This document shows, piece after piece, positions 27,135 to 62,412 of a DNA stretch of 64,000 nt (the stretch's first letter is position 1; the number at the start of each line of letters is the position of its first letter). Made by a program: the position numbers and the translations under genes. Source of the DNA: Lama guanicoe (Eukaryota); contig MU053304.1 in NCBI GenBank assembly GCA_013239625.1, positions 372,001 through 436,000 on the forward strand, written 5' to 3'. The notes beneath the pieces were generated by a model that ran no database searches, was not told the origin of the DNA, and saw only the letters and a list, made by a program, of their open reading frames with translations.

Positions 27135-28414
27135 TTACATACATTAAATCTACTTTTATTTTTTGTTCTAAAATGTGCTTTTTTTTTTCCTTAATATCAG
27201 TCCAGGACCTCCACCTCCTCTTTAAAAAAAAACAAACAAAAAAACACCACCACACACACACACAGACACACACGCCATCCTCCAACCAGGTGAAAAATCC
27301 CCGGCGATTAGTCTATAACAAATATTGACACAAGGGGGAAAAAAAGCATGTTGAAATGTATTAGAATCAGAACCTGTACAAAAAAAAAATTAAAATATAA
27401 CCTGAAACTGTTCAAGTTCAGAAAGGCTAGTCAAGTCCTTTTCTCTTGCCAGGAGAATGCCATCATTAGAAGGCTCTGGGTCACCAGCCAGGGAGGGTGG
27501 GAAGAAAGAAACAGAAGCAGCAACAGATCCTTCACCAGACAGACGGGCCTCGACACCACCATCCCCACCATGGATGCAGCCAGGAGGAATTAAAGATCTT
27601 GGGAGAGCAAGTGTTGGCAGACAGCCCCAGTGGGCCACTGGGGCCTTCACACCAAAACCCAGTCTGAGTAGTCAGAGGCAGCAGGAAGTGTGGCCAGCAG
27701 AGAACACCAAGCTAGAAGAAACTTCCGCCACCCAGCAGACCCATAGCCCCCTCCACTGATGCTCAGATACCAGATGTTAGTCAGCCCAGTGTTCCCAACT
27801 AATGAGGGGCTGGAGCTGGGCTTAAGAGGCTGAAAACCCGCAGGTTTAGTAAACATAGCCCAGCATCACATCCCTCCATGGCCTGATCAGAGCTGCCAAC
27901 AGGGGATAAGGCAGGAGAAGGAAAACAAAGCATTTTGATACCTGGCTAAAGGGCGCCTGCACCATTGTGGGTACTGTGGTACATGGGGCTGGAGAAGGAC
28001 AGCCCCCCTCACTCAGAGAGGGGCCTCCTTCACAGCCATCCCTGTGGGCCAGTTAAAGCTGCTTCCAGCTTATGACCAGCCTGACAAAATGACATGAAGC
28101 AAAAGAAAAAGTGGGAGGGAGACAAGCCCTTAGACAGAGACAAGAACCTCCTGGAGGGAAGCTGGGCAGTGTCTGGCCCTGTTGGGATGGCATCCGAAGA
28201 GCCCCTGAGTCTGAAGGGAGCAACTGGGGAAGGGCGAGTAGGTGAGGGAAGGGAGTTGACGGTTCTTCTGGAACAGTACCAATGTAGGGGAGGCGCTGGT
28301 GAGGGGACGGGCAGGTCTGGAACTCACGGAAGGTAGAAAGGGGAGGAAATAGGCCCTTGGTGTCCCCTCCCCACCTGACCCAGGCCTGGTGAGTGCCAGC
28401 TGCCCCAGCCAGCC
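27135..28414 (-). other. COPS7B: COPS7B 3'UTR (about 1.3 kb; end approximate)
   Basis: Unique sequence after the stop, with U-rich tracts, ending at AATAAA (27160-27155) and a GU-rich downstream stretch. Confidence 0.75.
27155..27160 (-). terminator. Polyadenylation signal AATAAA of COPS7B
   Basis: Plus-strand tttatt. On the minus strand it is followed by gatttaatgtatgtaactgtggaatgtgggg. A second AATAAA at 26850-26845 could be a distal site. Confidence 0.7.
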
Positions 28415-28636
<222 letters not shown>

Positions 28637-31600
28637 TCACTAAAATAGGGGCCACTCAGAGAAGAAGCCAGAATCCTCTGCAAGAAAATCTGAGATTATT
28701 TTCAGAAACCCAGATGAGGAGAAACAAGCAGGGGCTACTCATGGAAGATACATGGAAATGAGTCATGCGAAAAAGTGGAACTAATGTTTTCTTGGTTGAA
28801 AACAGGGAATATGCCAAGCGGCAGCAGACCATTTGGCAAAAAGGTAAAACACCGTAGGTGAAAGAAAGCTCTGGTTAAAACAGCCTTAAAAAAAGAAAAG
28901 GTGACCCAAGATGCTATACTCAGCTAATTATTGTTTCTGTATGAAATCACAAATATTTCACAAGAACTTTAAGAATACAGTTCTTGAATAAGCAACTGAG
29001 GAAAAACGTCAGCCAACTAAGTGACAAATGACCAAAAAAATGGAGTAAAAAACTGGCAAAAATGCAACCACAGTACTCAGTATATGTTTCTTCACTTAAC
29101 AAAGGAGTGGGTCAAAAATATTTCAGAACTCCTGAACATTTTTCCATGTCAGAACACATATTCTCTCTAACATCTGTGTACTGTTCTACTATGACTGATC
29201 TACCACTTTTCAATTAGTTCCCAGTTTGTTTTTCACTTATGTATATGCTACTATGGACAGCCTTCCATGTTTACCTTTTGCATACTTTTGTGAATACCCA
29301 TGGAGGACATATTCCTAGAACTGAGCTTTCCACATCGCAGACTCTGCACACTTTATGCTTTGGTAACTATTGCTACATTGCCTTCTGAAAAAGGTACCAA
29401 CTTGTACTTCTACTGTGTACTCCCGTGCCCGTATTTATACACATTCCCCAATAGTTCTAATGGATCTTTTATACCTTTGCCCATCAGCTTGCTGAGAGGA
29501 AGGAAAGGGGGAGAAAAGCAGAGAAGAAAACATTAGCTTTTTTTTTTTTAATCATTAGAAGGAAGAAAGGGGAGACGGTTGGTGCAGAGTAAGGTATATG
29601 TTTGTTGGTAAGAAAGAGAAGGTGCTTCCCCTGTTTGGCAGCTTCCATGTTCCCTGGGAAGGTTTGGTTTTCCACAGAGCAAGAACGGAGTTGCCAGGGA
29701 CCATGGTTCTCAACAGTCAGAACATCAGGAGCTTGAGTAAGAGGCCGTCCAAATGCAGAGATGAGAGCGACACAAAAATTAGGTTCCTGGAGATCTATCA
29801 TCTGCAGAAAGATCCTGGACTAGACTGTAGGTCATTTTTCATTTTGTTTTTTGTTTTGATGTAGGAACAGCCATGACCCAAAACCAATGTCACCTTAATC
29901 AATGACTTTTCTGATAGGAGCATCAACAGAGGGCTGTGGACTGGGACAGTGAACACAGAGGGCAGTCTAAGTCAAGTCCGGATTTATCCTGTGTCCTGCC
30001 AGACCAAGAAATGCTATCTCAGAACCCCAGGCATCTCACCTCCTAGAGGCTCATTGCTGCTCTGGTATCTCTTGTTGAATAGTCACTTGGTGAGATAGTT
30101 AATTTGGAGCAAGTGGGTAGCTAGCCACTCTCTCTTGTAAAAGAGATGTTTGTGTTTGTTTCACTTCAAGGCATAGTTTGATGGCCTTAGAGACAGATTA
30201 AGAAAGGTGATTTCTCAGTTACCACTGCTTTATAAAATAACACTCCCAGGTTTGTCCAGTTTGATATGTTTTCTAAGCATTGTAAAGAAAATTAATTAAA
30301 ATCTTAAGAGGTCACAGCATGACTTAAGTTTATTTCTTTGCATATCAGTTACCTCTGACTTCTAACGTATTAAAAGATCCTGCAACCTAAAAATAAACAT
30401 TAAGAAAATGGAGGGAAATAAAAAAGGAGATTCATGCCTCATATTTTCAGTACCTGGGATACACTGCCTGAGGGAATTTGTTTTTAAGGTTTCGCTTTTG
30501 AGCTGACAAAATCTTATTTAAACAAAACATTATGAAAATAACAAGTTTTCATTATAAGGCCTGTATTTCCAAAAAATGGTATCTTTCCCACTTAGCAAAA
30601 CAGCTTTATTAAAAATAAATTTAAAAATATAGTTTCCTTCATTTCATCTTGGCTGCTAAACACCACTTAACCTTATTTCATCAAGTTCTTTGTGCAATCA
30701 TTTTCACTAAACAATCAGCTTATACTACAAATAATTTCCGATATTGATTCTTTCATTTAATATATCTTAGATTTACTGACAGCCTCATAATCCCTACATG
30801 AATAAGAAAAAAGTATTTAATCAATTCCCAAATAACGGGTCTACTTTCAATCCCTTGCATCTGTGTTTCTGATGAATCTGTCATTACAAGCATAGCAGAA
30901 GTTAACTGGCATTTTTCTTTAGTGGCCTCAGGTGACTTGGGCCAGCTTTGGCATCAGAGTATCCATGGTGGAGCCGAGAAGCCAGTTCCTGCCTGCCAGC
31001 CCAAGGAGCAGACTCTGTCCTGTGGCACATTCACCACACACAGGCCACTCACCAAGAAACTGTTCCCTGTCGGCCTCTCAACAGCCAATCAGCTCAACTG
31101 GCCCCAACTCTTTTGCTGTATATATACTCTTCCCCTACCCAAAGTTCAGCACTTCCCGTTTCAGATCCTTTATAATAACATGAAATCACAGGCTCTCACC
31201 CTAGTTCCCGAGAAAACCTGCTCTTCACCCTTCTCCATCCACAGAAGGATCTAACTGTGCTCTCTTCCTATCTAAACCATCACTCCGCAAAATGGTAAGG
31301 CAGCCTCCCCATCTCAGTGACTCAATTCTATTTAAAAGCCTTTGATTCAGGATCCTGTCAAAAGCTTTTAACCAAATAAACAGAAGCAAAGACACTGCTC
31401 CACGGCTCCACTCAAATGCCTATTTACCTTCTCAAGCAGTTTTTCTTATAGAAACTACCTCCTGACAAGCTATTATTTGGGGTGCTCAGTGATCATGTCA
31501 TGCCAGAAGAAGAAATGAGACTTACCCCAAGGAAAAACCTGGGCTGTTCACCATTTCTGAAATGCCACTCAAGATCCTGTCCTTTCCTTCCTGCTCCACA

Positions 31601-33164
31601 GCATGTGCCCTCCACTGGAACCACACTGGTGCAGGCCTCATCCTCAGAAGCACTCCATTGGTTCTGCCTTGATGCCTTTCCTGCACCCCGTTCCAGCCTG
31701 GCGAACTTCCTCCTTTGCTAGCCGCCTCTGACCCTACCTCTTCCTCAAACCCACCCTGACCACTCTAGCCAACACTGACCTGCCTCCCTAAGCTACATCG
31801 CCTGGCAGCACCTCTCACTCTTGGATGGACAGCTTCCTCTGTGTTGTGTCTCCTCTGTTTCAGGGGTTCACATCTAGCTTCCAGTAAGACTACGTACTGA
31901 CAAAGTTAAGTCCTCCTCACTTGGGTAAACAAACCATAGAGAAAAAGAGGGGTTCTTGGGCAAGTGTCTCTTAGCCTAAGAAATGAGGCCTTTTATCCTT
32001 AACAAGGCCTCAGCCTGGATGGGGGTGACGCAGCTCCTATCACACTGGGGCCTATCACAGATAAGCTTTGCTCAAGTCAGTCTGATTGTTAGTATTTTAA
32101 AAACACGGAACTCACAAAGGAGACTGCTGAGCCAGTGACAGACTCTCAGAGCTGAGGGACAGGTAAGAGTCCTAGCTTTCTGTAATAGCCTCACGGGTCT
32201 GAAAGTAGACAGCTCCTTCTGGGATCCAAGAGTGGCTAGCCAGGTAGGCCTACCAACGAAACCCACAGAACACATCTGAGAAGTCTAACTCCTCTTTCTC
32301 AGAGCTGCCCTTTAAATGATGACTAGTATCCCACAGACTTGTCTTCTTTGGCCTAAATGTCCCTAATCTTTTCTAATTTTCTTCCTTGAGTGGACTGGCT
32401 TGCAGGCCATCCCCATCCTATTACCCCAGGTGACCTAGAGTTTGTCACACCCCTCAAATTACGGGCCTTAGGAATTTCCAGATGGGCCTGCACCTGCTAA
32501 CAAAGTCACAGCCTAGCTCTATCAGAGACCTTAAATATTCAGGCAAGAGGAGAGAAAAGTGTCCCAGTGTAGGAAAACTTCTTTCAGCTGTGGGGCAGAG
32601 CAAAGGTAGACAAGAGGTAGAGTGCAGAGTCAGAAAAGTGCTCCAGAGAAAAGGAGATCAGGGAGATGGAGAGAACAACCCTCCAGAAGGCATGAGAAGC
32701 ACACTGCTGGTGCGCTCTAACAGCCAACAGGCTCGAGATCTGTCATTAACAACCCCTGGGGGATTTTCTACATAAAGAAAAACAGAGTTTACTGTGTCCA
32801 ATTATGCTCTATTACCTACAAGACTAGAACACAGCCTACCTTGTAAATGTAGCACGTGCTATATATTGTCATTCCAGAGAACATCAGGCATAAGCACATT
32901 CAAATAGAAAGAGAAATACTCTCCAAAACCGAATGTAAATAAGGTGCTTGGTGGAGGTAATCATTACCTCCCCTCCAGAGTGTTTGCTCAGAGATAATGA
33001 AACAGCTCATAATGTTACTGTTCTATCTCCTCCAGGTATGCTGGAATTGTAGCTAATTAGTTTGTGTTATTTCTGTGAAAGGCTAAGAGGACAGAATATT
33101 CTTAGGCAGTTTGTGATGGGGCTGACTTCATTAAGAAAGGAAGGCTCTTAAAGCTAATACTCAC

Positions 33165-33221
33165 CAGAAGATAGCTGCTGTTATAAGATTTTGGAGGGAA
33201 AAAAACATCAAGTTTTCCCCT
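33165..33221 (-). CDS. COPS7B: Candidate alternative cassette exon of COPS7B (57 nt, between exon 6 and the last exon)
   Basis: gattgcttattctcag|AGGGGAAAAC...CTATCTTCTG|gtgagt. Consensus donor, no in-frame stop (RGKLDVFFPPKSYNSSYLL). Resembles a recalled human isoform insert, REKRDVPLLNLITTAFFW. Confidence 0.65.
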
Positions 33222-35298
33222 CTGAGAATAAGCAATCTAATTTAAGGACAAATAAAGAAAAAATCAACTCAGCTGAGAAAATGACTACAAAAGTTAGGTT
33301 ACAAGTAACAGAAGCATAAATCCAAGCAGAATAGAACAGAATTACAACTTTAGTCATGGTAGATTTTTCTTTTCAAGTTAACAGATATTTAGTCAGCACC
33401 CTCTCACTAAATGTGCCTTCAGCTGGGGGACAATCAGTATCCTACCCATAGCAGATCATGCATTTGTGAATGGAAAAACTGTCAAGACTCTGGGCTTTGA
33501 CCATTATCCCACTCTTCTCATACTTGTCTGTTCCAGGTTTCCTAGAAGATTATTAAGTCAGTAGATTGTTCTAATTGGGAGTGGAGGTGGCCTCGGTGGG
33601 TTTCCTCAAATTTCTCTCAAACTTAATCAAATCACTACTGCCACCTGGTGGCAGCATTGGGCTCTGCCAGCAGGGGCAGCCGGTGCTGTGTTTTCCTATA
33701 GTGAGCAAGTCCCTGTGTGCTGGCTCGCTCTCTTGTTTAATAACCATAATTCAAGGAGCCCACACTGTTGTAAAAGTATTGGTTGTGCCTCAACATTAGG
33801 CAGTGCCTTCTTTCATCAAATGCCATTTGTCACGAAAACAAACCTGAGCCATTCAAAATTCTAAAACCAGTATCATTTATTCAATTTTGCTAACAACCGC
33901 AATCCAATCCCACCACCTACCACACAATTAGCAACTGTCCAGGCACAATCAGGCTCTTCCCGGGGTACCAACTAGGTTAAAGATGGTCTGTTTCACATGG
34001 GCTATCCCAGGGCAGGTAGGCGTGTTTAGCTTCCAAACCTCATTTGTTTCCAGGGTTTGATTTAAAGAGAATAATCAGTGAAGAAGAGAGTGGTTACCCC
34101 TTCCTACTTTGCTCAGATATCAATCCCAGGTCAGAGAAGAGACCACAGGGTTCAAGCAGGGGATTACACAGCTCACTAGAGAAGCAGCAGGCTTAACTGT
34201 ATCCGTCTCTGACTAATGCTGAATTATAGTTCACACTTCTTTGGCTAGAAGATTAAAAATTAACAATAGATCAAACATTCACAGAGTAGGTATGTATATG
34301 TATATAGGGGTGTGTGTGTTTCTGAAATAAATTCACTCTAGTTCATGAAAACCAGGGTTCAGCAGCCCACTGACACTTGGAGGGTGTGCCTGAAATATAC
34401 AACAGTCATTTGAGCACCTGTTATGTGTTAGACATGGGACAAGGAGCTGACCTTACCAAGGCCAGGTTTTATTTTAAATGAGACACAGGTTTTATTTTTT
34501 AGGAGTACACACAACAGAGTAGGGGAAATCTTCAAATTCCAAAAATCCTCCTTTGGTAGGCACAACTACTTATTTCTTACGTTCCTTGGCTGTTACTCAA
34601 TCTCTTGAACAGCTGACATAAAATTCATTAAATACCATTAATGCTTCAAGCTCTATCACTCTAGAAAAGGACTTTCAATGCCAAAATTCTGATCTCAAGG
34701 GCTCCATACAAATCAGGCGATGGCTCGACAGGTATCCAGGCTATATGCTCACAAACACCCACTAATCAAAGGCTGGAGCCTGTGTCTCTCCCAGAGGCTA
34801 AAACTGTTCTGAACAACCAAGTGTCTACCACCACAATCACATTTCTACCTTCACTTGCATTTTACCAACCAAATTTTTTCCCTTTCTTCTTTCTTTAGTA
34901 TGAAACATATCATGCATTTTAAAAGATTACAACATTTTACAACAGTTTAGAGAAGAATAAAATGAACACTGTGCATCTACCACACAGCTTAAGAAGCAGC
35001 AGTACCAGGGCCTTGAAGCCCCATGTGTCCCTGCCCAACTACATCCCTCCCTCTGCCTGGCCTGGTAACCACCATCCCTCCACTCATCTTTAAGACTCAT
35101 CCCCAGACTTGTTTCTTTTGCTCTACAGCTGCAAAGTGCATGTGTACTGAGGAATTATAAGGCCTTGTGCTCTAAGCCCGCTCACCCTCTGGTGACCAGG
35201 AATCAGAAAGGAGACAGAGAGCACCAAGAGCAGGGCCCATGTCACTCATCTCTACCCCAGTCCTGCCCAGGGCCTGTTTGTGAGTGACCTCTGGTTTA

Positions 35299-35691
<393 letters not shown>

Positions 35692-37288
35692 TTACAGCTT
35701 TAATTTCCAACCTTCACATCCCATGGGAAAGCTTCACTGGCTGTGCAATTAAAGGAGTTAGGAGCGACGTTAACAGGCGGCACTGATTAATCTACTTCCC
35801 TGTGCAGAAAAAAGTATTTTCTCAAAGCATCCTATTTTGAAGATTGCCCTTTATCTGAGAAGTGTGTTACTTCCTAATTCATTATTTCATGTTCCCACTT
35901 TTTATTTTGAAAATCTTAAAACCTAAAAAAAAAAATTAATAGTACAAGAAATAGCCACATACCCCCACACTTCAGAGTCAACAGCTGTGAACACTTTGCC
36001 ATATTTGTGATAGCACTCTACATACCAATTTTGTTTCAAATCTAACTTCAATGTCTAAGACAAGTTGTAAAAATTTGTACTACTAAACATCCTAGAATGG
36101 GGGTTAGGATTGCCCCACTGGGTGCAAACACACTGAAACCAAACTACAGAGGTGAAAACTGTGTCAGCCACCTCAAAAACAGAATAAGACAGCCAACTTT
36201 AGTGGGATTGGAAACCTAGATTTTGTATGCCAGACCATTTTCATGCTAGGGGTATTTTCTAAGATTATTTCCCGTTTATTCCGATTTAACAGTTTTACAA
36301 TCTTTTGAAAGTTCCTGCCTGTGTCAGACGTTGTAAAGGGAAGGTGTCTGGGGTCACACTTGGGACAGAACTTGGGATAAAGGGTGGGCAGTACATGCCC
36401 TGGGGTCCAATAGTAGCCGAAGTGACAGAAATGCAGGGGCTTTTGGACATCCCTGGATATACACTTCTTGAGGCTAAGCCAGAGAGTCAGTCTGTTTTAA
36501 AGAAAACAATTTCCTTACTCCTCTGTACAAAGTCTGCCTGCCCTGCCTCATGACTTCCAATATGCCACGTGCCCACCTGGGAACATACTCTCCTCACCTC
36601 CAATGATACTCCAACTCTGGCCCTCCTTCAAAACTCAGCTAAAACCTCTTTAACTAAGTCCATCTAGCTTTCTAAGTCCCAAATCATTTGAATAACTCCT
36701 TGAAGGATGTGCCACAGCTCTTGCAAACATCAAATTACATTTAAATAGAGTATATGCAAATATCCCACTTCCTTTTATATTCCAGAATATGGTTATCAAA
36801 TATTCTGTGTTTGAGTCTCTGTTCCAACTTAGAATAACCTATTCCTTTGTGTTCAGTATCCCTCACAATGTTTTACGAACACTAGCCCAATGTTACTGAC
36901 ACTGAACATGGGTTCTCTTATCCAAAGAATCTTTACAAAACTAACTTCTTGAGCTTGGTCAAACTCTGAGGGTGAGTTTGCAAAGTGCAAAGTCAGTATC
37001 ACACAGTGAGGCTTCAAAGGCTCCACCTGCCAACCCTGGGCATTTTACGACATGCTACTAAACAGACCCCAACCATACAGGACAAGAACTATTTTACAAC
37101 CAAGACACTAAGAAGCCTGAAGCGATTTCTGCTGTCATACAGCTGTAGTCACAAATGCAGCCCCTCTTTGTAGCTTAACTGTCTCAAGGCCCCAGCTCCA
37201 GGCAGCCCTACATGATACCTGGAGACCACATTTCCCCAAACAGAGGCACAAAGGGCATGCTAGATATCCTCTCCTTCTTTGAGCCTCA

Positions 37289-37537
<249 letters not shown>

Positions 37538-39048
37538 TTAAAGAAAATGCAGGTATTACCAGATAAACAACAGCTGCCTCAGAGCTTTGGGAAATGGGGT
37601 ATAGTGGTAATTATTAACATCTATGGCAACAAGAGATGAATAAATGAGCTGTGAGACCTGTGAGATCCAAACAAGACCCACAGCATCTAGGCATGTGTTC
37701 TCCTCAGTCCTCCACCCCCGGACTTCGCCCAGCTTCCAGCTTTCATGCTCTGAAGTATGCTCTTAGAGATCCCAAAGACTCTTTACAGAGGAGAAAGGGA
37801 AATACTCAGTATACGGCACTCTGCTGCCTTCTGGAAGCTTGTAGAATTTGCATAAGTGCCAGATCATCACAAAACTGCAAACAATCTCAGACACCGAGAG
37901 ACAAACTGGCTGTGTGCCCAGCACAGAACAATTACAAAAACTTACAGGCTAACACATCCACCCATAGGTGGTCAATAGGTAGTACTGGCTCAGAGGTCAT
38001 CCTGAAATTTACATATGTTTTCTCTGTCTCTTAAAACCAATGTCAGTTCCCCAACAGTGGTCCTTTATTAGGCTGTACCAACATTCTGTATGACTCCAAG
38101 ACAAGTGGATATCTAAGTATCCAGTTTTCTGCAAATCCTCTGACACATCACTATTAGTTTGCAAATTAACACAGCAATCAAATCTGCAGAAACAGACAGG
38201 AGGAAGATGTATGCGGAGAAGAGGGCAAACATTAGAGGGGGTTTTCTGACTAAAGATCTGAAATTCAGGGGTGGTACATGTGCTTACAATGACAGGTTGC
38301 AGAAATAAGGGAAAAGGCAGTCCTACTCTTCGCTACACTTGAGAGGTCCATGACAAGGACAAAAAAAGGTCAGATTCTCATTTCCTAACAAAATAGGCCT
38401 CCCACCCGAAATGCCAAGCTGAGAAATAGAAATTTATTATGAGACCATGTAAAATGATTTCAGCCACTGAAATAGCAATCCAAGAACAAGTATACATCTC
38501 TCAGACTCAATCAGAGAGGGGAAATGCAAAAAGCAAACTGTTTCAAAGGCACAGACCCACAAAAACTTAAGACATTTAAGCTGGGATTGGCCAAAATCAA
38601 CTATAAATTAATCGAACCTGTATCATCTTTGTTAATGGCTATGAGCAGCTGGTTGCACGTCTTCTAAATCGAGTGGGGCAGAGAACTCAGACATACAGTG
38701 GAGTGGTATCTTCTAGAAGGTTAGGGTCAAAAGTTAGCATATAAAACAAAAATCCCAATTAGTATAATTAACCTTGAAAATCCCTAGAGGAAGGCAGCAT
38801 ATTAAAAATCTACCTTAGTTTTTCCTCCAGCACTGGCACAGTTCACTGTGCTCTGAGTAACTGAAGTGGTTAGCTTGCCTTGATATGCCTTGCTGTTTGA
38901 AAAATCTGTTTCTTGAAACAGCAGTCTCCTTTAAGCATTACAAAATGCTCACACCACGTGACATACCACAGCATGTCAAAACTGAGACCTGCTGATTCAC
39001 TACCACTCCTGGACACTTTTCCTAAATCGAATGGTGAGTAATCGCCTA

Positions 39049-39303
<255 letters not shown>

Positions 39304-41588
39304 TCAGTCCCACCCACCACAAAAATCAAGACACAAAATAAAATTAGGATTTCTTTATGGAATAAGTACACCAACTCCCCACATCAAACCTACTACTGAA
39401 TCACTGTCATGACTCTGCACTTATTTGTTAAGCAAATGTTCCATGAGCACCTCCTGTCTTCTCTGAAATATCATGTGCTTCCAAAGAAGAAAAAACTGAA
39501 TCTCTACACATAAGGAGCTTAGTCTACTGAGAAGTCACGTATGAATGCACAAAATGATATGACAATTATCTTAAAGGAATACTATTTGTGCCCTTTGTGA
39601 CATTCAATCAAGTTCAACATGTCTTCACTGAGCATCTGTTATGTGCTATGCCCTGTCTTAAGGGATTCAGGGGAATCAAGGATAAATAAGATGGGCCTTG
39701 TCAGGGCACTCCACAACTCCAGGAGCACCAACTACCACCCAGAGTTGTGTAACTCAAAGACCTTAGACTTGTCCTTGGTCTTACCATTAGATGTTTCAAC
39801 AGCTACAAATGCAAGACACAATCACCAAAAGAAAGGTATAAATTACCAGAAGAGAGCCAAAGGGTTAAGAGGAGGGGAGAGGCAGAACGGAAAAAAGAGA
39901 GAGAGAAAGAGAGAGCGAGAGCAAGAGAGTACGCAAGTGAGTGAAATCACACTGGGGAGACACGGGAGAGAAAAAGGAAGAATGGTGGAATTTGAGATGT
40001 TCCCTGAAGGATGGGCAAAAGTTTAGTAATAACAGTAATGATAACAACAGCACTGGCAGCAGCCACTGGTGACATATAAGACAAGCTTTACTTGGTGTCT
40101 AAGTGCAAACACAAATCCATAAATGAGCACACACATCCACTTAATCCTCACAGCAACACCACAAGATGGATTCCAGATATGTCTTCAATTCCTTATCCAT
40201 AACCCTGGATTCCAAAAAAGGTGAATCCAAACTAACATTTTTTCCCTTGAGCACAGTGCTGAGATTCATCTGGTGGCAACTCATTTAAATTGAGTTACGC
40301 TTTTTATCCCATTTGTTGCAAATATTCATTTGTTTTGCTGCAAAACTATGAATGTGTTAGACTACCAGTGTTGCCCACATCGCTCAAGTGCGTTACATAA
40401 AAAAGTATATGCATCATATTACCTTTTTAAAGTCCCCAAAACTCTAAATTCTGAAACATCCAGCCCAAGGAGTGCAAGTAAGGGACTGCGGATCTTTCTA
40501 TTACTCCCATTTTAGAGATAAGGAGATTGAGGTACAAAAGATTATTTAATTTGCCAAAGGACACACGCCTAGTGGAAATGGAAATAGAATATAATGCAAG
40601 AATCCTGGTTTCAAAGTCTGTTAAATGCTGCTCTTAAGAGAGGATGGAAACAAAGAATACAAAGCAAAGGTCAGAAAAAGCTGGAAAGTGGCAAACCATC
40701 CAGTCTGACAGCAGCACAAAGTAGAAGTGACCAGGGAGAAAGAAAGTGAGAAAAAAGGGGAAGTCAGGGATATAGTAGGGAAGACCCTGAGTCATACCAC
40801 TAATATAAACTGCCAGGCCTATGTCATACCACTAAAATAAACTGGGGAAGCCAGACAGAAATGGCTTGGGTGGAAGGTAAGTTAGTGTCTGGACAAGCAC
40901 ACACCTCATTCCTGATATTTAAGATTCTAATTTACGATGATTCAAATGATTTACAAAAGAGAATGGGGTAAGTAGATTATGGAGTATTAGATTATGAAAT
41001 ATTAAAAGTGACTACAACGACTTAAAACATGGATAAATGCCTATGAGATAAGTGAAAAAAGCAAGATATAAAATTGTATACACAATCTAATATCACGAAC
41101 TACATATCAGAAGGTACAAGCACAAGGGGGAAGGTACTCCAGCACCATAATGCTGACAGTAGTTTAATGGTGGTACAACTATGAGTAACTTTTTCCCCCT
41201 ATTTTCCAAACTTTCTTCAATATGGTGATAGTATTTAGATAATATTTAAAATGCTTAAATACTTTACAAGTGGGTATTCTAACGTTTCACAACACTCCAA
41301 ATGTTCTGCAAACACCAGTCCTCAAGAATCTCATCTGGAAAATAAACAAGGGCTATATTTATGGATGAGCATAAACATAGCCCCCACATATCCACTGGGA
41401 AATACAAGGTGAGAAGGGAAAGTCCTCATGTGAGGTCACCTACAGGACACAGTAAAATGGGAAACAGCCAGGTTAAAAAGTTCCCACCCTTTGTTTTGTA
41501 TCCCAGACCTCAGTGATCCTCATGAAGACAACACATCCAAACAGAGCAACATAATTAAGAAGACTTTGGAGGATCTTAACCAACTCAC

Positions 41589-41664
41589 CTATGTAATCTG
41601 GGTATGTTCCATAGGCAAACAGGTTCAGCAACTGCAAATAAGCAGCATTAGTTCCTTCTGCAAG
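41589..41664 (-). CDS. COPS7B: COPS7B exon 3 (76 nt)
   Basis: ttttttttcttctcag|[25 protein letters not shown]+G|gtgagt. Phase is consistent with both neighbours. Confidence 0.97.
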
Positions 41665-42766
41665 CTGAGAAGAAAAAAAAACAGTTCACAGATCAAGCTA
41701 TTTATAATCACTGCAGTGTTCAAGCAGAGGACAGATGACCATGTGCCACGGTTTTGTACTGTTTTATTGCTTGGTCCCTGAGGTCCCTTCCAACTCTTTG
41801 ACTCTTTGAAGAAAAATAAATAAGGTTATTAAGGCCCCAAATTTAATTTTTCTCCCTCAGGAATCCATGTTTTACACTCCACACAGCATGCCCAAGAACT
41901 ACTTTTGTCACACACACACAGATGCGCACACACACAAAGCAGAAAGCACAGGGAGCAGTTCATCTTTTCTCAGGATTCCCTTGCCGTCAAAACGAAGACT
42001 GGATCAGCCTGTCTACACAACAGCTTGGGAGGTACAGCACAAGCCACTAACAATCCAAACCGAATAAAGTATAGGGTTGGCTCCAAGTTTCAGGACTGCA
42101 AGTGGACTGTGAATTCTGGAGATTAGCACAGCGTTAAGGTGTGACAAAAGAGCCCAATTGGGGCAGGAAACCAGGATATCAGTCAGCACCAAACAAAATT
42201 ACGTATTCCTCACTAATGCTAATGGCAAAGAGCCACCTGTAGAAGAAAAATGAAAGAGATACTATTCTACCAGGAACTGCTCTCCTCTGCTCTGCTGCCA
42301 GTTACCATAACTGGGTGCTTCCCTTACAAATATGCACCTGTTACTCTTGCAATTTACCAAACTCAGGAAAGTCTGAACAGGAATACCCAAGTGGTATTCT
42401 GTGGACACCAATAATACTACTACTCAATTTTTACCATCTTATAAAAAAAAGGTTCTAAAAACTGTATAATTTCAGACCACTGAAAGGCTACTAGTTTATT
42501 CCCAGATCACATATGGAAAAAAACTGTGGGAGGATAAAGGTGATTTGCTAAGCACTCCAATGAGAACTCTGGCATCCTAATACCCAGTCTAACTTCTCAG
42601 GTTATCAAAAACCTCCTGAAGTCCTGAATTAGAAGTGGAAGAGATCATCAAATCTAGCCGCCACTTTTCAGACAGACAATTACAAAACTAGCTATAAAAG
42701 ACTATTTTCTCTAGAGCAGACACTCCCAAGTTTCTCCCACTGGCTTAAATCAACAAGTTCTTTCTG

Positions 42767-43409
42767 AGAGGACGCGACGTGAGTCGCGATGCTGAATCCT
42801 GCTTACCTAGGAAATGCAGCTAACACATCAGCTGGACCTATTTCCTGAATATAGAGTGACCCTTCTGTTATTTAAAGATGTAAAAAAATGCTGGAGACTT
42901 GAGGAAAAAGGCCATGGAAGGTGCAATTGATGGCTCATTAATAAACCCTACAGTGATTGTGGATTCATTTCAGATACTTGTGGAGCAAACAAAGCAGTTC
43001 ACCTCTACAAACTGAGAAGAATGAAGACAAGAACTCTATCTACTGAAATTATTTTCAATCTTTCCCCAACTAACAATATTTCAGAGGCTTTGAAGAAATT
43101 TGGTATCTCAGCAAATGACACTTCAATTCTAATTACTTATATTGAAGAGGGAGAAAAACAAATAAATCAAGAAGACCTAATATCTCAGGTGGAAGGTCAT
43201 CAAGTTTCTCTAGAATATCTACCTGAAATAACAAATATTACAGAAGTGAAAAAGATATATAAACTATCTTCACAAGAAGAAAATATTGGGACATTATTGG
43301 ATGGTATCATTTGTAGAATGTCAACAAAAGATGTTTTATGAAATGAAAAATATTAATAGTTTTCAGCATTTATTAAAAACATTGGTTATTTTTTCCAAAT
43401 TTAAAAAAA
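42767..43409 (+). pseudogene. TPRKB: Processed pseudogene of TP53RK-binding protein (CGI-121, KEOPS subunit)
   Basis: Intronless, ATG 42814 ([24 protein letters not shown]) to TGA 43341 (...[11 protein letters not shown]). +1 A near 42882-42888, in-frame TGA at 42928-42930, -1 near 42983. ATTAAA 43372-43377, A-tail, and TSD AAGTTCTTTCTG at 42755-42766 and 43410-43421. Confidence 0.95.
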
Positions 43410-43476
43410 AAGTTCTTTCTGGCTTTAATTTTCATCTACCTCCTCTTACCCAAACTTCCATATAAAACAACCACTT

Positions 43477-43627
43477 TGGTAGAGGAAGGTATAGCTCAGT
43501 GGTAACTTGCATGCTTAGCATGTACAAGGTCCCGGGTTCAATCCCCAGTACCTCGGTCAAAAAAAGAAATCTAATTACCCCACACATACAAAAAAATTTT
43601 AATTTAAAAACAAAAACAAAAACAAAA
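43477..43627 (+). mobile_element. tRNA-derived SINE (vic-1-like)
   Basis: gtatagctcagtgg...gggttcaatccccagtacc, A-rich tail, TSD aaccactt at 43469-43476 and 43628-43635. Confidence 0.88.
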
Positions 43628-43699
43628 AACCACTTGGCATATTCATTCAGGCTTTTCATGAACCTGAAGGAACATATTACCCCTTTGTCATCACTTCTT

Positions 43700-44190
43700 T
43701 TGAAAAATGATGAGCTATCAAGCCATGAAAAGACATGGAGGAAATTTAAATGCAATATTACTAAGTGAAAGAAGCAAATCTGAATGGTTACATATGTTTG
43801 ATTCCAACTATATGACATTCTGGAAAATTTTAAACTATGAAGACAGTAAAAAGATCAGTGGTTGCCAGGGATTAGAAGGGAGAGAGGGATAAACAGGTAG
43901 AACACAAAGAATTTTTAGGGCAGTATAATACTCTATATGATATTTACACAGCAGATATATGTCATTATACATCTGTCTGAACCCAAAGACTGTACAACAC
44001 CAAGTGTGAACCCTAATGTAAACAATGGTCTTTGGGTGATAATGACGTGTCCGGGTAGGTATCACACTGGTGGGGGTTATTGGTAATGGGGGAGGCTATG
44101 CATGGGGTACATTAGAACTCTCTGTACCTTCGTCTCAACTTTATTGTGAATCTAAAACTGCTCTAAAAAAAAGTCTATTAAAAAAACAAA
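43700..44190 (+). mobile_element. LINE-1 3' end (L1MC-like)
   Basis: gacatggaggaaatttaaatgc...ctaagtgaaagaagc...gatcagtggttgccaggg...aaaactgctctaaaaaaa. Confidence 0.8.
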
Positions 44191-44399
44191 AAACTCAGTT
44201 TTCTTAAGTTTTCCTCAAGGGACTCCTTTTCTATTCTCTGGTAAATTAAATTTTTACTGAAAGCTTACTGTGTGTCAGGCTACACAATACGCTCTAAGGA
44301 AACAACTGTGAGCACACAGACTTTACCCTCATGGAGCTTACAGTCTAGCAAGCCAGCCTACCATTAAATAAAAATTCACAATTGAAAAATAGAAGTGGG

Positions 44400-45030
44400 T
44401 CTTTGTGTTTCTAGCTGTTGCAGGGAAAGGAAATGATGCAGCGTCCACACATCTGCAATGGATATCATGAGGAACTACCCAAGTTTCCTGATCAAGAGGA
44501 ATAAGCTAGGGTGAAAGGGTATAGCTCCGTGGTAGAGTGCACTTAGCCTACACAAGGTCCTGGGTTCAATCCCTAGTACCGCCATTGAATAAATAAATAA
44601 ATAAACCAAATTACCACTCTCCCCTCCCCCCAAAAAGAATAATAAGCAGATATACAGCAGCCAGCCAGCCAGTAACCTGAAGACACACAACTCCTTTTGC
44701 TACAACAGGCTGATCCAAGGCAAGGCTGTGGGCATGGAGCCGGCAGCCAATGGCAAAGGTGTCCTCGTGGTCATAAACTGAAGAACTAGCCAGCAAAAGC
44801 CAGTCACCTCCTATGTGTGGACCACCATCAACAAGAATGCCTGGAACACCCTCAACAGCATCGTGCACATGAACAAGGGCCGCCCAGACCTGCACACGGC
44901 TACCATCAGCAGAGCTGGCACCATCCTAGGCAGCCAGAAAGCAGCTGTGATGGTGAAGAGGAAGTTAACCTACCCCACCAAGAGCTCCTGAGCACAACTC
45001 CCAAAGTAATAAAGATGTCAGCAGACTTCT
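44400..45030 (+). pseudogene. RPL28: Processed pseudogene of 60S ribosomal protein L28, interrupted by a SINE
   Basis: Degenerate S-T-HLQW...FLIKRNK, then (after the SINE) Q-IYS...NLK..NSF.YN.LI...[16 protein letters not shown]...[15 protein letters not shown]...PTKSS* (TGA 44989-44991). AATAAA 45008-45013. Start codon lost; stops and indels present. Confidence 0.9.
44507..44634 (+). mobile_element. tRNA-derived SINE (vic-1-like) nested in the RPL28 pseudogene
   Basis: A-box-like tagctccgtgg, B-box ggttcaatcc, (aaat)n, A-tail. Imperfect TSD aagaggaataagc / aagaataataagc. Confidence 0.88.
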
Positions 45031-45655
45031 CAATCTATGTAAAAATACTAATCAATAAATATAAAAGTATCTAAAGCAGGAAGTAGATGGTTAAAAGCAT
45101 ATGCTGCTTTACATCTCTGTTCCACCTGGTTATTTTTCACCAGATCTTCTCATTTTTAAGGCACAACAACCAAAAGTGATACTCAAGGTTTTAATAACAA
45201 CCACCACACAAGCAAACAAAGTAAAAAGGACTAATTCCAAGCTTTTCATGTCATATCTTTTTTAACACATCTATTTTATAATTGCCCTTTTCACGGGAAC
45301 AATACACTCTTTATTCACAATCATCTCATGTTCAATAGCAATCATTTTCTGCTGTGTATGTACCTGATCAATCTTCATTGTCTATATTCGCACTAGAGGT
45401 TTTATGCCCCTAAGAATGACTAAAACTACCTTTGCTAAACATCAGTCCACACTTCTAGTCTACTTTTTCAATTTATCAGGTTCAATTGGATATTCCCCTA
45501 TCTTTCAAGTTATTAGCAGCCTAACTTAAATTGACCCCAAATTCACATGAAAATATTGACCAGAAGGAGGCCAGGACATCATCCTTGCTCTCTTATCCTG
45601 CCCCATTAATTCTCATTCCTCTCTCAACAGAGCACCTCACAGATCCACAGCTTCA

Positions 45656-45931
<276 letters not shown>

Positions 45932-47870: not shown

Positions 47871-49559
47871 AAGGAGAGGAATGCAACCTAGGCATTACTG
47901 GGCCCCAAACCATCGCTATTACCATACTGGGCCCTAAAACCGCCTCTTTGGCCCAGCTTTACCCCTCAGAAGTTCCCTATAGCGACTGTGTCTACCCAGG
48001 GGGGTACAGAGACAATAAGCAGTAAAAACTACCATTTTTTGAGCGTTCTTCCATGTGCCGGGTGCTGTACATTGTCTTGTTGAATTCTCATAGTAACTCT
48101 ATGGCCTGTAATATTATTCCCATTTTTCAAGTGAGATAACTAAGCCTAAAAATCCAAAAGCCAGTAAAGGTCAGTCTCCTTTGTAACCCAGGCTATCTGA
48201 AACCAAAGACCATGTTCTTCACCTCTAATCAGAAAAGGTTTTAAAATAAGCAAAAGATGGGTTGAGACAACAATGGTTCTGTGACGAAAATGACATTCAC
48301 GGCATTGCATTTGGTACTTACCAACTCCCCTGGGAGACAGTAAGAATGTTACATAACTGAACACTTAAACTGGTCCCTTTAAACTATACATCACAGACTT
48401 TCAGTTCTTGAAGATGAGAATAAGAGGCCTGTTTACGTTTTGTGCATTTGAATGCAGAAATCAATCAGACAGATGCAAAGGAGCCTAGCAACAACTAACT
48501 CATTTATTTAAAAAATTTCTTTGCACCTATTATATTCTAGAAGGTTATAAGAAGAAAAGACAAGGTTCTTGCCCTAAAAAAGCTTCAATGTTTTAAGTGC
48601 CATGAGAGACAGATGATAACACTTTGGAACCACAGAAGAGAATGTGCTGGGGAAGAGAAAATGGGCATCTTATGGGTAAAGGGGGTAAGTAAAAGAGGTC
48701 AATGACCATAGTCACAGAGGTTTGCACTGTGCAGTATATACTGATGCATAAAAGAAACCCATGACTGGGACCCAGGGTTCACAGGTGAGAAATGGGGGCT
48801 ACAGAGTTGAAGTTAGGTCATCGAGGTTCTTGGAAACCACATTCAAGGCACTATACCCAGTAAAAACCTAAATACTGCTAAGTTCCTACCTAGGAAAGCT
48901 CAGAGCTCCTGGGAGAGACAGGCCTGTCTGGCTATTACAGACCATGCCATAGGCAGCCCAAGGGTACAGATGAGGCTCTCCTCACTGTACCCGGAGGAGA
49001 GGTGATTTAAGGCAGGATTCTGGACGAAATGATACTTGAGTTAAGCCTGGAACAATGAGCAAGCAAATCAGAAAGAGTATAAGCCATGTTAAAGAGTTTT
49101 TGTTTTATCTTAAGGGCACTGGGGAGCTATTTAGGGTTTCTTTTTTTTTTTTTAGCTGTGGAGAGGTCTGAATAATTGCCATTTTGGACACTAGCTGTTA
49201 TAGGAATGGATTGGATATGGAGGGAACTAGAGGCAGGGAAATGCTTGAGGTGACTGATGTATTCCATTTAAGAGACTGTGAGATCTTAAAGAAAAGTAGT
49301 GGCAGTTGGGCATAAAATCAGAAGGGACAGTGTTGGAGACATTTAGACCATAGTCTCTATCAGACCTGGTGACCAGTTGAATGCAGGGATAGGGAAAGAG
49401 GATCTCACCCAGGATTCTAGCTGGGGAGGCTAGAGCTGTCTGGAGGTGGTGTAAGTGAACAGGGCTGTGGAGGAGAAGGGGCAAACATGATGGTGGAAGG
49501 AAGACAACTAAGTTCTGCTGAGTTCCTGAACATTCTGGCTATGTCTCCATTTCCTCCAC

Positions 49560-51049: not shown

Positions 51050-51599
51050 CTAACCTCTGGATGTTTCAACCTGGGTGGGAAAACTTCACCAAGGAGAATA
51101 AGGTCGCATAGCCATGCTGCTAAAAATATCACCACCCTAGAGCCCAGAATGCAGGAGACTTAGATCCGAATTTTAACTCTGCCCCATCTTACTGTGGCCC
51201 GTGGACAATCTCTTCGCCTCTCTGGGCCTCAGTTTCCTCATAAGTAAAACAACTGGAGTTGGATTGGCAAATTCTCTGAATTCTGACTGCATTGATATTC
51301 TGAGTACACAATCCATATCTCTCCCAGTCCAACGCAGGAGCACATCAGAAACCCCTGCAAAACACGTAAAAGGCGCCCCAGAACAAGAAGCACGACTTGA
51401 AGGACTCATTTTGTTATATTATCTTTCACAGTTTAATCAGTGTTTGTGTTTGTTTTTTCAGTCTTACCATGACTTGCAGGAGATTTCTGAGTTCCATGTA
51501 AATAGAAGTTACCTCTCTGTGGGCTGTCATCTTCTTTTGAGGCTGAAGAGGATCTTCCCGTCTGGTTTCAAGACTCGGGATTCAGAAAACACCAAGCCT

Positions 51600-52750: not shown

Positions 52751-53934
52751 CTGGTGTTGAACTCTCTCGGGTTCTCCCATCCCATCCCATCTCACTCCAC
52801 CCCACCTTGTTTCCACAACTTCTCTTCCTCACTTGTGGCTCCTTCCTGGGCTGGAGCAGAGGGAGGTGGGGAGTGAGAAGTCCGAGATGGACCTCGTCTT
52901 AACTCTGCCTTGACCTTTTGAGGCATTGGACGATCGCTGCTTCTCCCTCAGCTCCCAGTTTTCTTTGCAGCGAAATGAGGATCCTAAATTTGTGTGTGGG
53001 GTGCCTTGAGGTGTTTTGGTTTTGCACTGGATCTCTTGGCAAGGGTATCTGCTTGTTGGAATGTGTGTGGTTAACTCATAGATATGGTGGAGCTGTCCAG
53101 CGATTGTTTGATTACGTTGGGGACAGGGTAGGATTTAGTAGAATACAGAAATCGTTGCCTCAGGCCTGTTGTGGTGCGGCTGCTGCAACCTTCTCTTCCT
53201 ACTGTAGTGAAGCTTTGTGTTTTTTGGAGTGTTAATCTGTGACCGTATGATGCCGATGAAAAAATGCAATCTTGTCCATTCCAATTTTACATTTTCCTGC
53301 TGATCTTAATCTCTTCTTACATCTATGCTTACAATATGGAACATCCTTAAGTTTCTCTCAGTGAAGATGTAGTCATCACTTTAGGGCTCCTCACCTGGAG
53401 GTTTAGTAAAGCACTGTTCTCTGAGCTGCCTGTGTGTTTTCACAATGCCCGTTTCACTCCTGCAAATTTTAATTGCTTTGTCATATTCGGAAACCAAGTT
53501 GGTAGTAAATTTTAGAATACAGCAGCAAACAAGTTACAGGAAGTTTTGGCTATACAAAAGAAAATTTTCAAATGGAAGCTGACCTGCTATGCTTTCTTTT
53601 TTAAAGAGGAGGCATTATCATCTTTACATACTGCCATTCGTGATAAACTTTCAGTACTTTCATGCAGTGAAATTTAGTAATAGCCTCTTTTATAGCCTCC
53701 ATGTACCTTTCTATAGTTCTCTTCATAATGGCGCCTATGAGTAGATAGGGATGGCTGAAGTGTTAGAAAAGCCATAAGATGGCTTTTTATTTTTCCCTAA
53801 GTAATTTATATTGTTAGTTAACGTCTATGCTGTAGACAGTAAACCCGCGACTATGGAAAATTGAGTTTTCAGAAGCAATGTTTTTGTCTGCTTGGAATTA
53901 ACATATTGCTGGAAACAAGAAAGTATCGAGTTTT

Positions 53935-54160
53935 TAAAATTTTATTTTTTATTGAAGTGTAGTTGATTTACAGTGTTAGTTTCAGGTATACAGTAAAGCG
54001 ATTCGGTTATACATATACGTTTTTTCCCAGATTTTTTCCATTATAGCTTATTACAAGAAATTGAATATAGTCCCCTGTGCTATACAGTAGGGCCTTGTTG
54101 ATTTTATATATAATAGTGTGTATCTGTTAATTCCAAACTCCTAATTTATCCCTCCTCCCT
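53935..54160 (-). mobile_element. LINE-1 3' end, same family as 18477-18835
   Basis: tattgaagtgtagttgatttac...ttgaatatagtcccctgtgctatacagtagg. Confidence 0.8.
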
Positions 54161-54435
54161 CAAGAAAGGATCTGTTTAATAGCTTTTGAACAAAGCAAAA
54201 AGGGAAAGTTTGAGCTTCTCACCTTCAGTCTTGGCTCTTAAACCTTGTTCAGGAGAAACCTTTTTTCTTGAGAAAGAGGCTAAGGGACGAAAAAGGAAAA
54301 GAATAGAAAGCAGAACCTGTGTCAGCCTGCTAGAAGGGAAGGTGAATTAACCAAGTAAGTAATGACTTCAGTACCTCTAGAAATAGGCTTTTAGGGAAAA
54401 TTTGACCTGGGCTGAATAAATCACAAGGGAAGCAG

Positions 54436-54486
54436 ACACACACACACACACACACACACGCACGCACGCACACACACACACACACA
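54436..54486. repeat. (CA)n microsatellite with cgca interruptions
   Basis: Directly visible. Confidence 0.92.
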
Positions 54487-57111
54487 GCAATGGAATCCTC
54501 TGGTAGCCTTTATTGGCATCAAAGAATTAAGAGAGAAAAGTAAAGGAGTTTTAGGATTTGCCCATACCTTCAGGAAAAAATAAAATTAATGTTTTAATAA
54601 GAAACTACCTGACTGTTGCTCACCTTTTATTGGATAAGTTGTTTTTCTGAACTTTCTTCTAGAGTATCTTTCTGTAAGAAGAGTTTTCACTACAAAAAGA
54701 AATCACCATTATATTCTCCTACCAAAGTACTAACAATGTTGACAATACTCATTTTCCACATTGGCTATGTTGTTCTTTTTTGTTTTTGCCAATTTGAACA
54801 ACAGATAATATCTTGTTTTAATTTGTTTTTCCCTGATTCCTAGACCTCTGGAGGAGTAATGTAGGATAGTGGTTAGGAGCTGTGCTGGCCTGCAGAGATA
54901 TACTGTCTGCATTGGATTCCCAGCCCTGTGCCTCTGGCTGTGTGGTCCTGAACAGTTTATTTAATGACTGCCACATTTTCCTTATCTGTAAATAGGGATA
55001 AAAATAGTACCTTATCTCCTAGGGTTGTGAGGATTATATGAGTTGGTATCTAAAGCATTTAACAATGCACCTGATGCCTGGTTAGCATTGTGTATTGGCT
55101 ATTGTTGCTGTTGTTGTTAGCTATTAGTGTTGTTGTTGGAGAAGTTGCAAAATCTTCTCTTTGACCATTTCTTTTTCTTCTGTGAATTGCTTGGTGGTTT
55201 TATTTTTGCCCGTTTTGCTATTGAATTTCTTATTTTTCTTATTGCTTCGCAAGTGTTTGTTGTGGTATCGATCCTTTGCCTATATTGTATGTTGCAAATG
55301 TTTTCTCTCAATTTATTGCTTGTCTCTTTTTTGTTGAACAGGAATTTTAAATTATCACTTCAAATTCATCAATATTTCTCATGTGGCTTCTGCATTTTGT
55401 GTCTTGTTTAAGAAGAACTTCCTTGTCTTAAGGTTAATTAAATATCCTCCTATGTTTTTTCTCTTTTTAATGTTAGCTCTTTAATCCACTTGGAATGTAT
55501 TTACACTTATGTTATGTGGTAGAAATCTGACTTCCTTTGCTGTTTGGGTAGCCAGTTGCCCCACTACTATTTACTGAGTAGTTAGTCCATCCTTTTCCCC
55601 ACTGTTCTGAAATGCTCTTTGTCATAAATTGAGGCTCCATAAGACATGGATTTATTTTTGGAATATATCTGTTTCATTGTTCCATTTATCTCTTCCCATT
55701 CCTTTCCTGTATGCATTGTTTTAATTATTTTAGTTTTATATTATGACTTAGTATAGTTTACAATAGGACTGATATGTCATGAACAGAGAATGTGTTTGAA
55801 GTCATACTGTAAGTTCCTTATAAATATTCATGTCCCTTTTATACAAATAGAACCTTGCTTATATTTCCAGAATAGGTACTCAATAAGTTTGAATAGCACA
55901 CTTCATAAATCAGGGATAGTCTTTGTATCTGAGAAAATGCAGTGTAAACTTTTGTATTTGCCGTAAGTCTTTTTAAAATAAAATATTTGTAAGATTTATT
56001 TTTCACATCACCTACACCTCACCTTACCCCCTTTCAGCTCAAACACATTGAGTCTTGGATTTCTTGCTTGCTTGTTAAAAACATAATGCTTCCTAATTTT
56101 AAATTAAAGTTATGAATGAAATATTACTTGGAGAACAAATGTGGTTCTCCTGCAAAGGTTTTGAATTTGAGTATTTTGAGTAGCTGATACGGAGATATTG
56201 TTTGGGATCCTGAATTCCCCATTTCATTCATTCAACAAAAGTCTGTTGGCAGACTTCTGAACAGGGTCCTATGTATTTAAATGACATAACGATGAATGAG
56301 TCACAGACCCTTCTTTCCAGAAATGTAACCATTTGTATGTCTGTTTAGAAAGGATATCTACAAAAGGAATGCATTTTTAAAAATAGTATTTAATTTTTCT
56401 TTTACAAGCTCCAGCTACATAAAAATGAAGTTTGTTGGTATTTTAATATAGCTTTCTAATATAGCTAATGTTTAATGTATTTCCTTTTATTAAAATGGAG
56501 TCATAAATATTATTTTGAAACTTTTTTCACTTAATTTACCATGCTCATAATTTTCAAAAGATAGTTACTTTCAATTGCTTTCAGTGACAGATTTGTCACA
56601 GTCCTCTTATACTGGTTTTCTAGTATAGGCTGGAATGCACTGTTCAGCTTATTCAAATTACTTTTTCCTCAACATAAATGTATAACTTCATTAAGTTAAT
56701 GTCGAGAAACTGACACACTGCCATAAGAAAGGATTATGCTTTTGCTATTTCATTATTTTTAATCCATCTGGAATGTGCTTTGATATAAGGTATGAAGCAG
56801 TGATTTAATTTTTTAAAGGTTAGCTAATTGTCCCCATTTCTTTATTTATACCCCAGATATTAACATAATATCCAGAATATAAATGACTGCCTGCACCAGT
56901 AAGATAAATATTTAACTCAAAATGGACAAAGCATAAGAACAAACAGTTCTCAGAAGACAAATTCAAATAACCAATGAATAAATTCAGAGATGTTCAACTT
57001 TATTAAAACAACAAACTATCCCTCTTTCCCAATTAATTGACAAAAATTTAGAAGACTGATGATACTCAGTCTTGGCCACTATTAGGGGAAAGGGATGCTT
57101 CATTTGTTCTC

Positions 57112-57158
57112 TGTGTGTGTGTGTGTTTGTGTATATGTGTTTGTGTGTGCGTGCGTGC
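57112..57158. repeat. Imperfect (TG)n microsatellite
   Basis: Directly visible. Confidence 0.85.
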
Positions 57159-59925: not shown

Positions 59926-60122
59926 TGTATTAGTCTGCTAGGGCTGCCACAACAAAATTTACCATACAGTGGGTGGCTTAAACAACAGACATTTATTTCT
60001 CAACAATTCCGGAAGCTAGGAATTCCAAGATCAAGGTACTAGCTGATTTTGTTCCTGGTGAGTGCTCTGTTCCTGGCTTACAGACAGCCACCTTCTCTCG
60101 TGTCCTCACGTGGTGGAGAGAG
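59926..60122 (-). mobile_element. MaLR LTR fragment (MLT1-like)
   Basis: tgtattagtctgctagggctgcc...ggcttaaacaacagacatttatttct...ccaagatcaagg. Confidence 0.75.
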
Positions 60123-62296: not shown

Positions 62297-62412
62297 GGTG
62301 GGAGATAGTGATAGAGTGTATGCCTACCATCCATGAAGTTCTGGGTTCAATCCCCAGTACTTCCATTTAAAAATTTTTAAATAAATAAATAAACCTACCC
62401 CCCCCAAAAATA
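62297..62412 (+). mobile_element. tRNA-derived SINE (vic-1-like), degenerate A box
   Basis: gatagagtgtatgcc...ctgggttcaatccccagtacttcc, (aaat)n, C-run and A-tail as in the other copies. Confidence 0.8.

Follow-up and report, generated by a model that had tools for sequence, protein, structure and literature searches.

Alternative forms of COPS7B in mammals

CSN7b defines one of the two paralogous variants of the COP9 signalosome, as stated in the accessible parts of two articles on this complex (PMC5095148, PMC12938401). The gene that codes for it, COPS7B, is also the seat of an alternative splicing event that deserves attention. In the accessible text of the literature that we searched, we found nothing on the exon discussed here: as far as those excerpts extend, PMC12625517 cites COPS7B only as an entry in a pathway table, and PMC8442315 gives an exon-skip event in COPS7B by database number, without coordinates. 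The exon is already known, being annotated in other mammals, and the only new element that we bring is a copy with a length of 0 mod 3 in the genome of Lama guanicoe. Primates provide the closest described counterparts, with isoforms of 278 and 273 amino acids (P0008 of Homininae/Pan, P0009 of Pongo, P0015 of Mandrillus) in which both acceptor forms of the exon are annotated.

We used the translation of the second frame of the last COPS7B exon as a query against a collection of 5.8 billion proteins, and this retrieved 21 proteins ending with the shifted tail. In 17 of them a cassette is inserted between ...QQQVEAE, where exon 6 ends, and LPTSRR..., where the shifted tail begins; these come from 11 primate taxa, two bats, two carnivores (panda and cat), one peccary and one elephant. 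A preliminary description of the locus had cited a human isoform in which REKRDVPLLNLITTAFFW is followed by the shifted tail, and P0008, whose UniRef cluster bears the name Homininae, contains exactly this arrangement. Two further proteins are exon-6-skipping isoforms, from a dolphin (P0003, Lagenorhynchus albirostris X2) and a macaque (P0012, Macaca fascicularis X10), one has a different insertion (P0014) and one is a spurious open reading frame that runs across an intron edge (P0005). The exon-6-skipping isoforms enter the same second frame (HEW joined to LPTSRR...) because exon 6 is 106 nt long; they lose helix I and involve no cassette. Two independent splice routes, via the cassette or via the skipping of exon 6, lead to one alternative tail.

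The cassette isoforms of primates, bats, panda, cat, peccary and elephant share with the 64,000-nucleotide stretch of guanaco DNA that we analysed (the window) the same intron, two acceptors 15 nt apart, the same donor context, with its codon split between TG and G, a related peptide, and the same downstream exon with an open second frame. They differ from it in length. All 17 cassettes associated with the shifted tail imply, from their peptides, an exon of 2 mod 3 (53 or 56 nt, or 15 nt more from the upstream AG), so that the tail is replaced by LPTSRRHSK...RRCPK, whereas the exon of the window is 0 mod 3 and would keep the canonical tail; the regularity of the orthologs is partly built in, since the proteins were selected by their shifted tail. 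A table of lengths taking in 11 of the 18 cassette-bearing proteins gives 53 nt, or 68 nt from the upstream acceptor, for primates, bats, panda and elephant, 56 or 71 nt for cat and peccary, and 51 or 66 nt for Rhinopithecus bieti X1, to be compared with 57 or 72 nt in the window; ten of its 11 ortholog rows are 2 mod 3, that of R. bieti X1 being 0 mod 3. The upstream AG adds five residues (IACFQ, IACSQ, TACSQ, LAISQ, IACLQ or IVCFQ) in eight of the 11 tabulated rows.

The case of R. bieti came from a complementary query with the canonical tail. Among the 120 matches listed out of 127, exactly one representative, the predicted R. bieti X1 (P0123), holds an orthologous cassette in frame: it reads IVCFQRENVKSPPESYNSSFLL and then VTNIKK, and its PPESYNSSFLL is the counterpart of PPKSYNSSYLL in the window. 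Here, as in the guanaco, the cassette (66 nt from the upstream acceptor) leads into the normal frame, through another length change (51/66 as against 57/72 nt), and because the change differs the two in-frame states are independent. The isoform also has a different 3' end, and the model was predicted by computation from a draft assembly. The suggestion that the in-frame state would be peculiar to the lineage of the window is overstated on this account, and in-frame isoforms of further species may lie within the 90% clusters of the canonical protein. Other insertions at the junction between exon 6 and the last exon, P0052 (a rhinoceros read-through), P0094 and P0057, are unrelated sequences. 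As for rodents, none appears among the 21 shifted-tail proteins, and about ten rodent taxa are present among the canonical-tail matches listed; this apparent absence suggests that the shifted-tail isoform is dispensable.

Poison exons, the cassette exons that trigger nonsense-mediated decay, offer another point of comparison, as they too are short, conserved exons of low inclusion that sit in the long introns of housekeeping genes. The cassette of the window differs from them in that neither frame meets a premature stop before the last junction. A role as a decay-inducing poison exon was discarded accordingly: there is no phase-0 stop within the cassette, and the stop of the shifted frame (28442-28440) belongs to the last exon.

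The COPS7B gene of the guanaco and its cassette exon

Six COPS7B coding exons were placed at 45895..28418, on the minus strand, by tblastn with P0033, P0043, P0008 and P0003, with identities of 92-100% when residues at splice edges are set aside. Three Pfam families (PF22061, PF01399 and PF18392) were detected on the orthologous proteins, and the exons for the CSN7 helical bundle, the PCI domain, helix I and the conserved tail follow each other in order on one strand, which confirms the identity first proposed for the gene. Exon 6 (35479..35374, minus strand; 106 nt, CDGCEAV...QQQVEAE) accounts for most of CSN7 helix I and closes on a complete codon, in phase 0. The part of the last exon that codes in the canonical frame covers 28573..28415 of the same strand, from VTNIKK to SSRH, with a TAG stop at 28417-28415. 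Its second frame (28572..28440, minus strand) consists of 43 open codons, LPTSRRHSK...RRCPK, closed by a TGA at 28442-28440 that sits inside the last exon. No N occurs in the window and each of the six coding exons is intact, which gives no hint of poor local assembly.

Several features of the gene are worth recording beside the exon that concerns us. The potential junction 37290>28573 of the minus strand corresponds to the skipping of exon 6, a route that is open in this genome and unaffected by the length of the cassette. The model P0043 of Camelus dromedarius (261 aa) reads through the donor of exon 3 (GELVKILQ...RITE) and skips exon 4; positions 41509-41589 of the window, minus strand, encode this read-through with 52 of 53 residues matching, an agreement that places the genome among the camelids or very near them, and the model is probably an annotation artefact or a case of intron retention. 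Further upstream, 51456-51530 (minus) is homologous to the N-terminal extension of the dolphin isoform X2 P0003 (MTAHREVTSI..., 84% identity), and a second piece, at 48889-49040 (minus), is homologous to the same extension with 60-70% identity. This homology suggests alternative upstream coding first exons in the CpG-rich region that precedes the main ATG by about 3-6 kb.

The cassette lies 2.1 kb into intron 6, which separates the helix-I exon from the last one and is 6.8 kb (6800 nt) long. In its proximal-acceptor form it spans 33221..33165 on the minus strand, that is 57 nt, and reads RGKLDVFFPPKSYNSSYLL in phase 0, without a stop codon. The intron ends with ...gattgcttattctcag, its AG at 33223-22, and the first base of the exon is an A at 33221. 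On the other side, the donor gtgagt follows CTG at 33159..33164 (minus strand, GT at 33164-33163), and it comes as near the consensus as do the donors of the gene's constitutive exons. Within the exon, a run of seven T (33205..33199, minus strand; A7 on the plus strand) is followed by C3, TCC and A4 runs. A second AG, at 33238-33237, stands 15 nt ahead of the proximal one with a much better pyrimidine tract, the sequence of which, ttttttctttatttgtccttaaat (33239..33262, minus strand), is read directly and would serve this upstream acceptor. Its use would extend the exon by 15 nt (33222..33236, minus strand) to 72 nt, adding IAYSQ to the same 19 residues, again in frame. Both acceptor AGs, the pyrimidine tract and the donor are intact.

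As assembled, the exon is thus 0 mod 3 in either form (57 or 72 nt), and the 2 mod 3 feature of the orthologs is lacking; inclusion of the 57-nt form would yield 264+19 = 283 amino acids. The preliminary description was exact on all these points, be it the acceptor, the 57-nt exon, the CTG/gtgagt donor, the position of the T7 run, the coordinates of the junctions 35374>33221 and 33165>28573 (exon 6 does end at 35374 and the last exon does start at 28573), or the preservation of the frame and the 283-residue product. Neighbouring signals would leave the shift unrestored: the exon would have 55 nt if the AG at 33221-33220 were taken as acceptor and 61 nt if the second GT of gtgagt were taken as donor, both 1 mod 3 when the shift demands 2 mod 3. 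The cassette is single copy in the 2.05-Gb assembly, where the 121-nt and 801-nt queries each match only themselves, a count to be read as a lower bound because very common words are skipped in such a search; an origin from a transposon was set aside on the same matches.

Orthology of the exon and nature of the extra base

Considered alone, the splice-site pattern of the cassette is at about chance level: intron 6 has four GTRAGT sites where its composition predicts 4.5, and for two of these four donors a YAG with a pyrimidine tract is available upstream. What lifts the cassette above chance is its orthology to annotated exons of other mammals. The peptide that precedes the T run in the window, IAYSQRGKLDVF, compares with IACSQTEKLDVF in the cat and LAISQREKLDVF in Molossus, and beyond the run it is LQNLITAAIF, read in the -1 frame of the window, that matches the NLITAAFF of cat and primates. 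The tandem acceptors 15 nt apart and the GTRAGT donor placed after TG are both found in the window. Judged by peptide comparison, the cassette is the ortholog of a real, already annotated alternative exon of COPS7B, and what had been put forward as a candidate exon finds orthologous peptides in the 17 shifted-tail isoforms and in P0123. Since the matches lie on both sides of the T run, it follows that the exon of the window is this ortholog with a net extra base relative to those species.

The initial proposal was that the reading frame hinges on the T7 run. That one T fewer would put the last exon in its second frame is correct, and the -1 frame downstream of the run matches the NLITAA.F of cat and primates; to give the run this pivotal role is an overstatement, since any indel of one nucleotide within the exon has the same effect. 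The core of the exon is a chain of runs, T7-C3-TCC-A4. The cassette of the peccary (56 nt) also reads V-F-F at the run, which is compatible with seven T's, and that of the cat (56 nt) reads V-F-S-P-P. Comparison of the cat, peccary and primate peptides would fit an extra base in the T, the C or the A run alike. The T run is the most mutable and most error-prone site of this core, homopolymers being the commonest site of indel error.

We infer that the extra base is probably a genuine small indel in the homopolymer chain of an exon of low inclusion and weak constraint. Two observations point to this weak constraint: the length of the exon varies among species (51, 53, 56 and 57 nt), and no rodent is found among the 21 shifted-tail matches.

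Possible use of the exon and reality of its frame

Use of the exon in the guanaco is suggested by its intact splice signals, and it may be asked whether the sequence was kept while being not, or no longer, spliced into the COPS7B mRNA of this species. The question of the frame would then be without consequence for the protein. We hold such a silent pseudo-exon to be unlikely, without being far-fetched. In its favour, the isoform appears to be missing in rodents, hence dispensable, the splice-site pattern is no better than chance in intron 6, and cassette-bearing proteins close to the window did not come up in either frame among the cluster representatives. When the in-frame peptide was used as a 44-aa read-through query, no representative shared three 5-residue words with it; among the 21 shifted-tail proteins none had a tail 100% identical to that of the window, the best (93%) being the exon-6-skipping isoform of the dolphin. 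We have therefore seen no annotation of this species or of its near relatives that includes the exon, in either frame. This search is weak as a counter-argument, though, and the absence of an annotated cassette isoform in this lineage is weak negative evidence: the proteins searched are cluster representatives of 78-2000 aa, where a 283-aa in-frame isoform would probably be hidden in the canonical 90% cluster. Copies of the exon derived from host DNA in metagenome contigs gave 0 matches, be it with a pattern of flexible run length or with a degenerate pattern for other mammals.

Against a silent exon stand both acceptor AGs, the pyrimidine tract and the consensus gtgagt donor, all of them preserved, and also the existence of RNA sequencing runs that contain 0.27-0.45 of the sampled words of the region 28000-35600. 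More generally, 14 DNA runs match at least 0.97 (0.97-0.99) of these words and RNA runs 0.08-0.45, shares that carry no information on the length of the T run or on the use of the exon.

Another reading puts the extra base itself in doubt: the seventh T, or another base of the run core, would come from a faulty assembly or from a minor allele, and the true exon would have 56 nt and shift the frame. The uniform 2 mod 3 of the 17 cassette-bearing shifted-tail orthologs argues for it, as does the fact that one base less in the run restores the NLITAA.F of the cat and primate peptides, in an assembly fragmented into 55,231 contigs and at a type of site prone to indel error. The V-F-F of the peccary, which as a back-translation would accommodate seven T's, argues against it, together with a surrounding 64 kb free of N in which the COPS7B coding exons are all intact, and with the in-frame version annotated elsewhere, in R. 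bieti. On balance we find an error or minor allele rather unlikely. This estimate is compatible with the one given for a silent exon, as both states can hold at once. Finally, that the cassette has nothing to do with the primate exon and resembles it by accident, as an AG and a GTGAGT may happen to be paired in any long intron, is hardly credible: the ordinary number of GTRAGT sites in intron 6 and a second donor at 32116, which has candidate acceptors too, would allow for it, but window and orthologs have in common the position in the intron, the tandem acceptors 15 nt apart and a peptide that agrees before the run as well as after it (IA.SQ, (R/T)(E/G)KLDVF, NLITAA.FW).

Consequences for the protein

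Returning to a genuine indel as the preferred explanation, we see in the window the local ortholog of an old alternative exon of placental COPS7B, which has a strong donor and a pair of acceptors separated by 15 nt. In other mammals the exon, with its 53 or 56 nt (68 or 71), moves the last exon to its second frame when included, and the product retains the PCI domain and helix I while its 52-residue tail is swapped for another, rich in arginine, proline and serine. In the guanaco an exon of 57 or 72 nt would leave the normal tail in place and add 19 or 24 residues behind residue 212. The cassette transcript would be expected to escape nonsense-mediated decay, because both stops lie in the last exon (usual 50-nt rule).

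In the canonical protein of 264 aa the domain of helix I (PF18392) extends over residues 166-215, and the junction between exon 6 and the last exon falls at 212/213, so that the cassette takes effect just where the structured core ends. Among the deposited CSN7B chains, several have 206-220 residues, alongside full-length entries of 264 aa. Among the canonical-tail matches listed, many mammals and a turtle share the 52 residues of the canonical tail with 100% identity, and the loss of so constant a tail in a splice form may well have a meaning. A real in-frame state would provide a natural contrast on the importance of the alternative tail, since the exon would be included without loss of the normal tail. 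Should the alternative exon be only splicing noise, we have here an everyday case of indel drift in a weakly constrained exon. The homopolymer is also a position where a single base would lead annotation pipelines to predict different isoforms.

A more ambitious view would see in the second frame of the last exon a selected dual-coding region, kept open over 43 codons from elephant to human, reached via the cassette or the skipping of exon 6 and giving CSN7b an arginine-rich tail with a distinct function, camelids then being a natural knock-out of the cassette route. The gain of one nucleotide would, if this were true, have turned an exon that swaps the tail into one that inserts 19 or 24 residues at the end of helix I. 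We find this improbable. When the canonical codons were reshuffled synonymously, the second frame stayed open for at least 43 codons in 5% of cases with uniform codon choice and in 7% when GC3 was favoured; an open frame of 43 codons is thus mildly unusual and, as one lineage-correlated observation, it makes weak evidence for selection.

Other features of the region

Outside COPS7B, a crude Pfam test of stop-to-stop frames of at least 75 aa in 1-28000 and 53000-64000 brought none of 105 frames to the gathering score, with three sub-threshold matches at chance level, and no other protein-coding gene was recognised in these two segments by this test. A (GT/CA)n microsatellite at about 54400-54520 shows up as open frames reading HTHTHT or CVCVCV. 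Within COPS7B itself, the intron between the first and second coding exons harbours on the plus strand, at 42931-43341, an intronless open frame of 136 codons that matches the Pfam family CGI-121 (PF08617) with an E-value of 3.5e-34, the match covering positions 41-159 of a profile of 159. This frame resembles a retrocopy, truncated at its 5' end, of the gene for a kinase-binding protein, which we take to be TPRKB, and it lies on the strand opposite to COPS7B.
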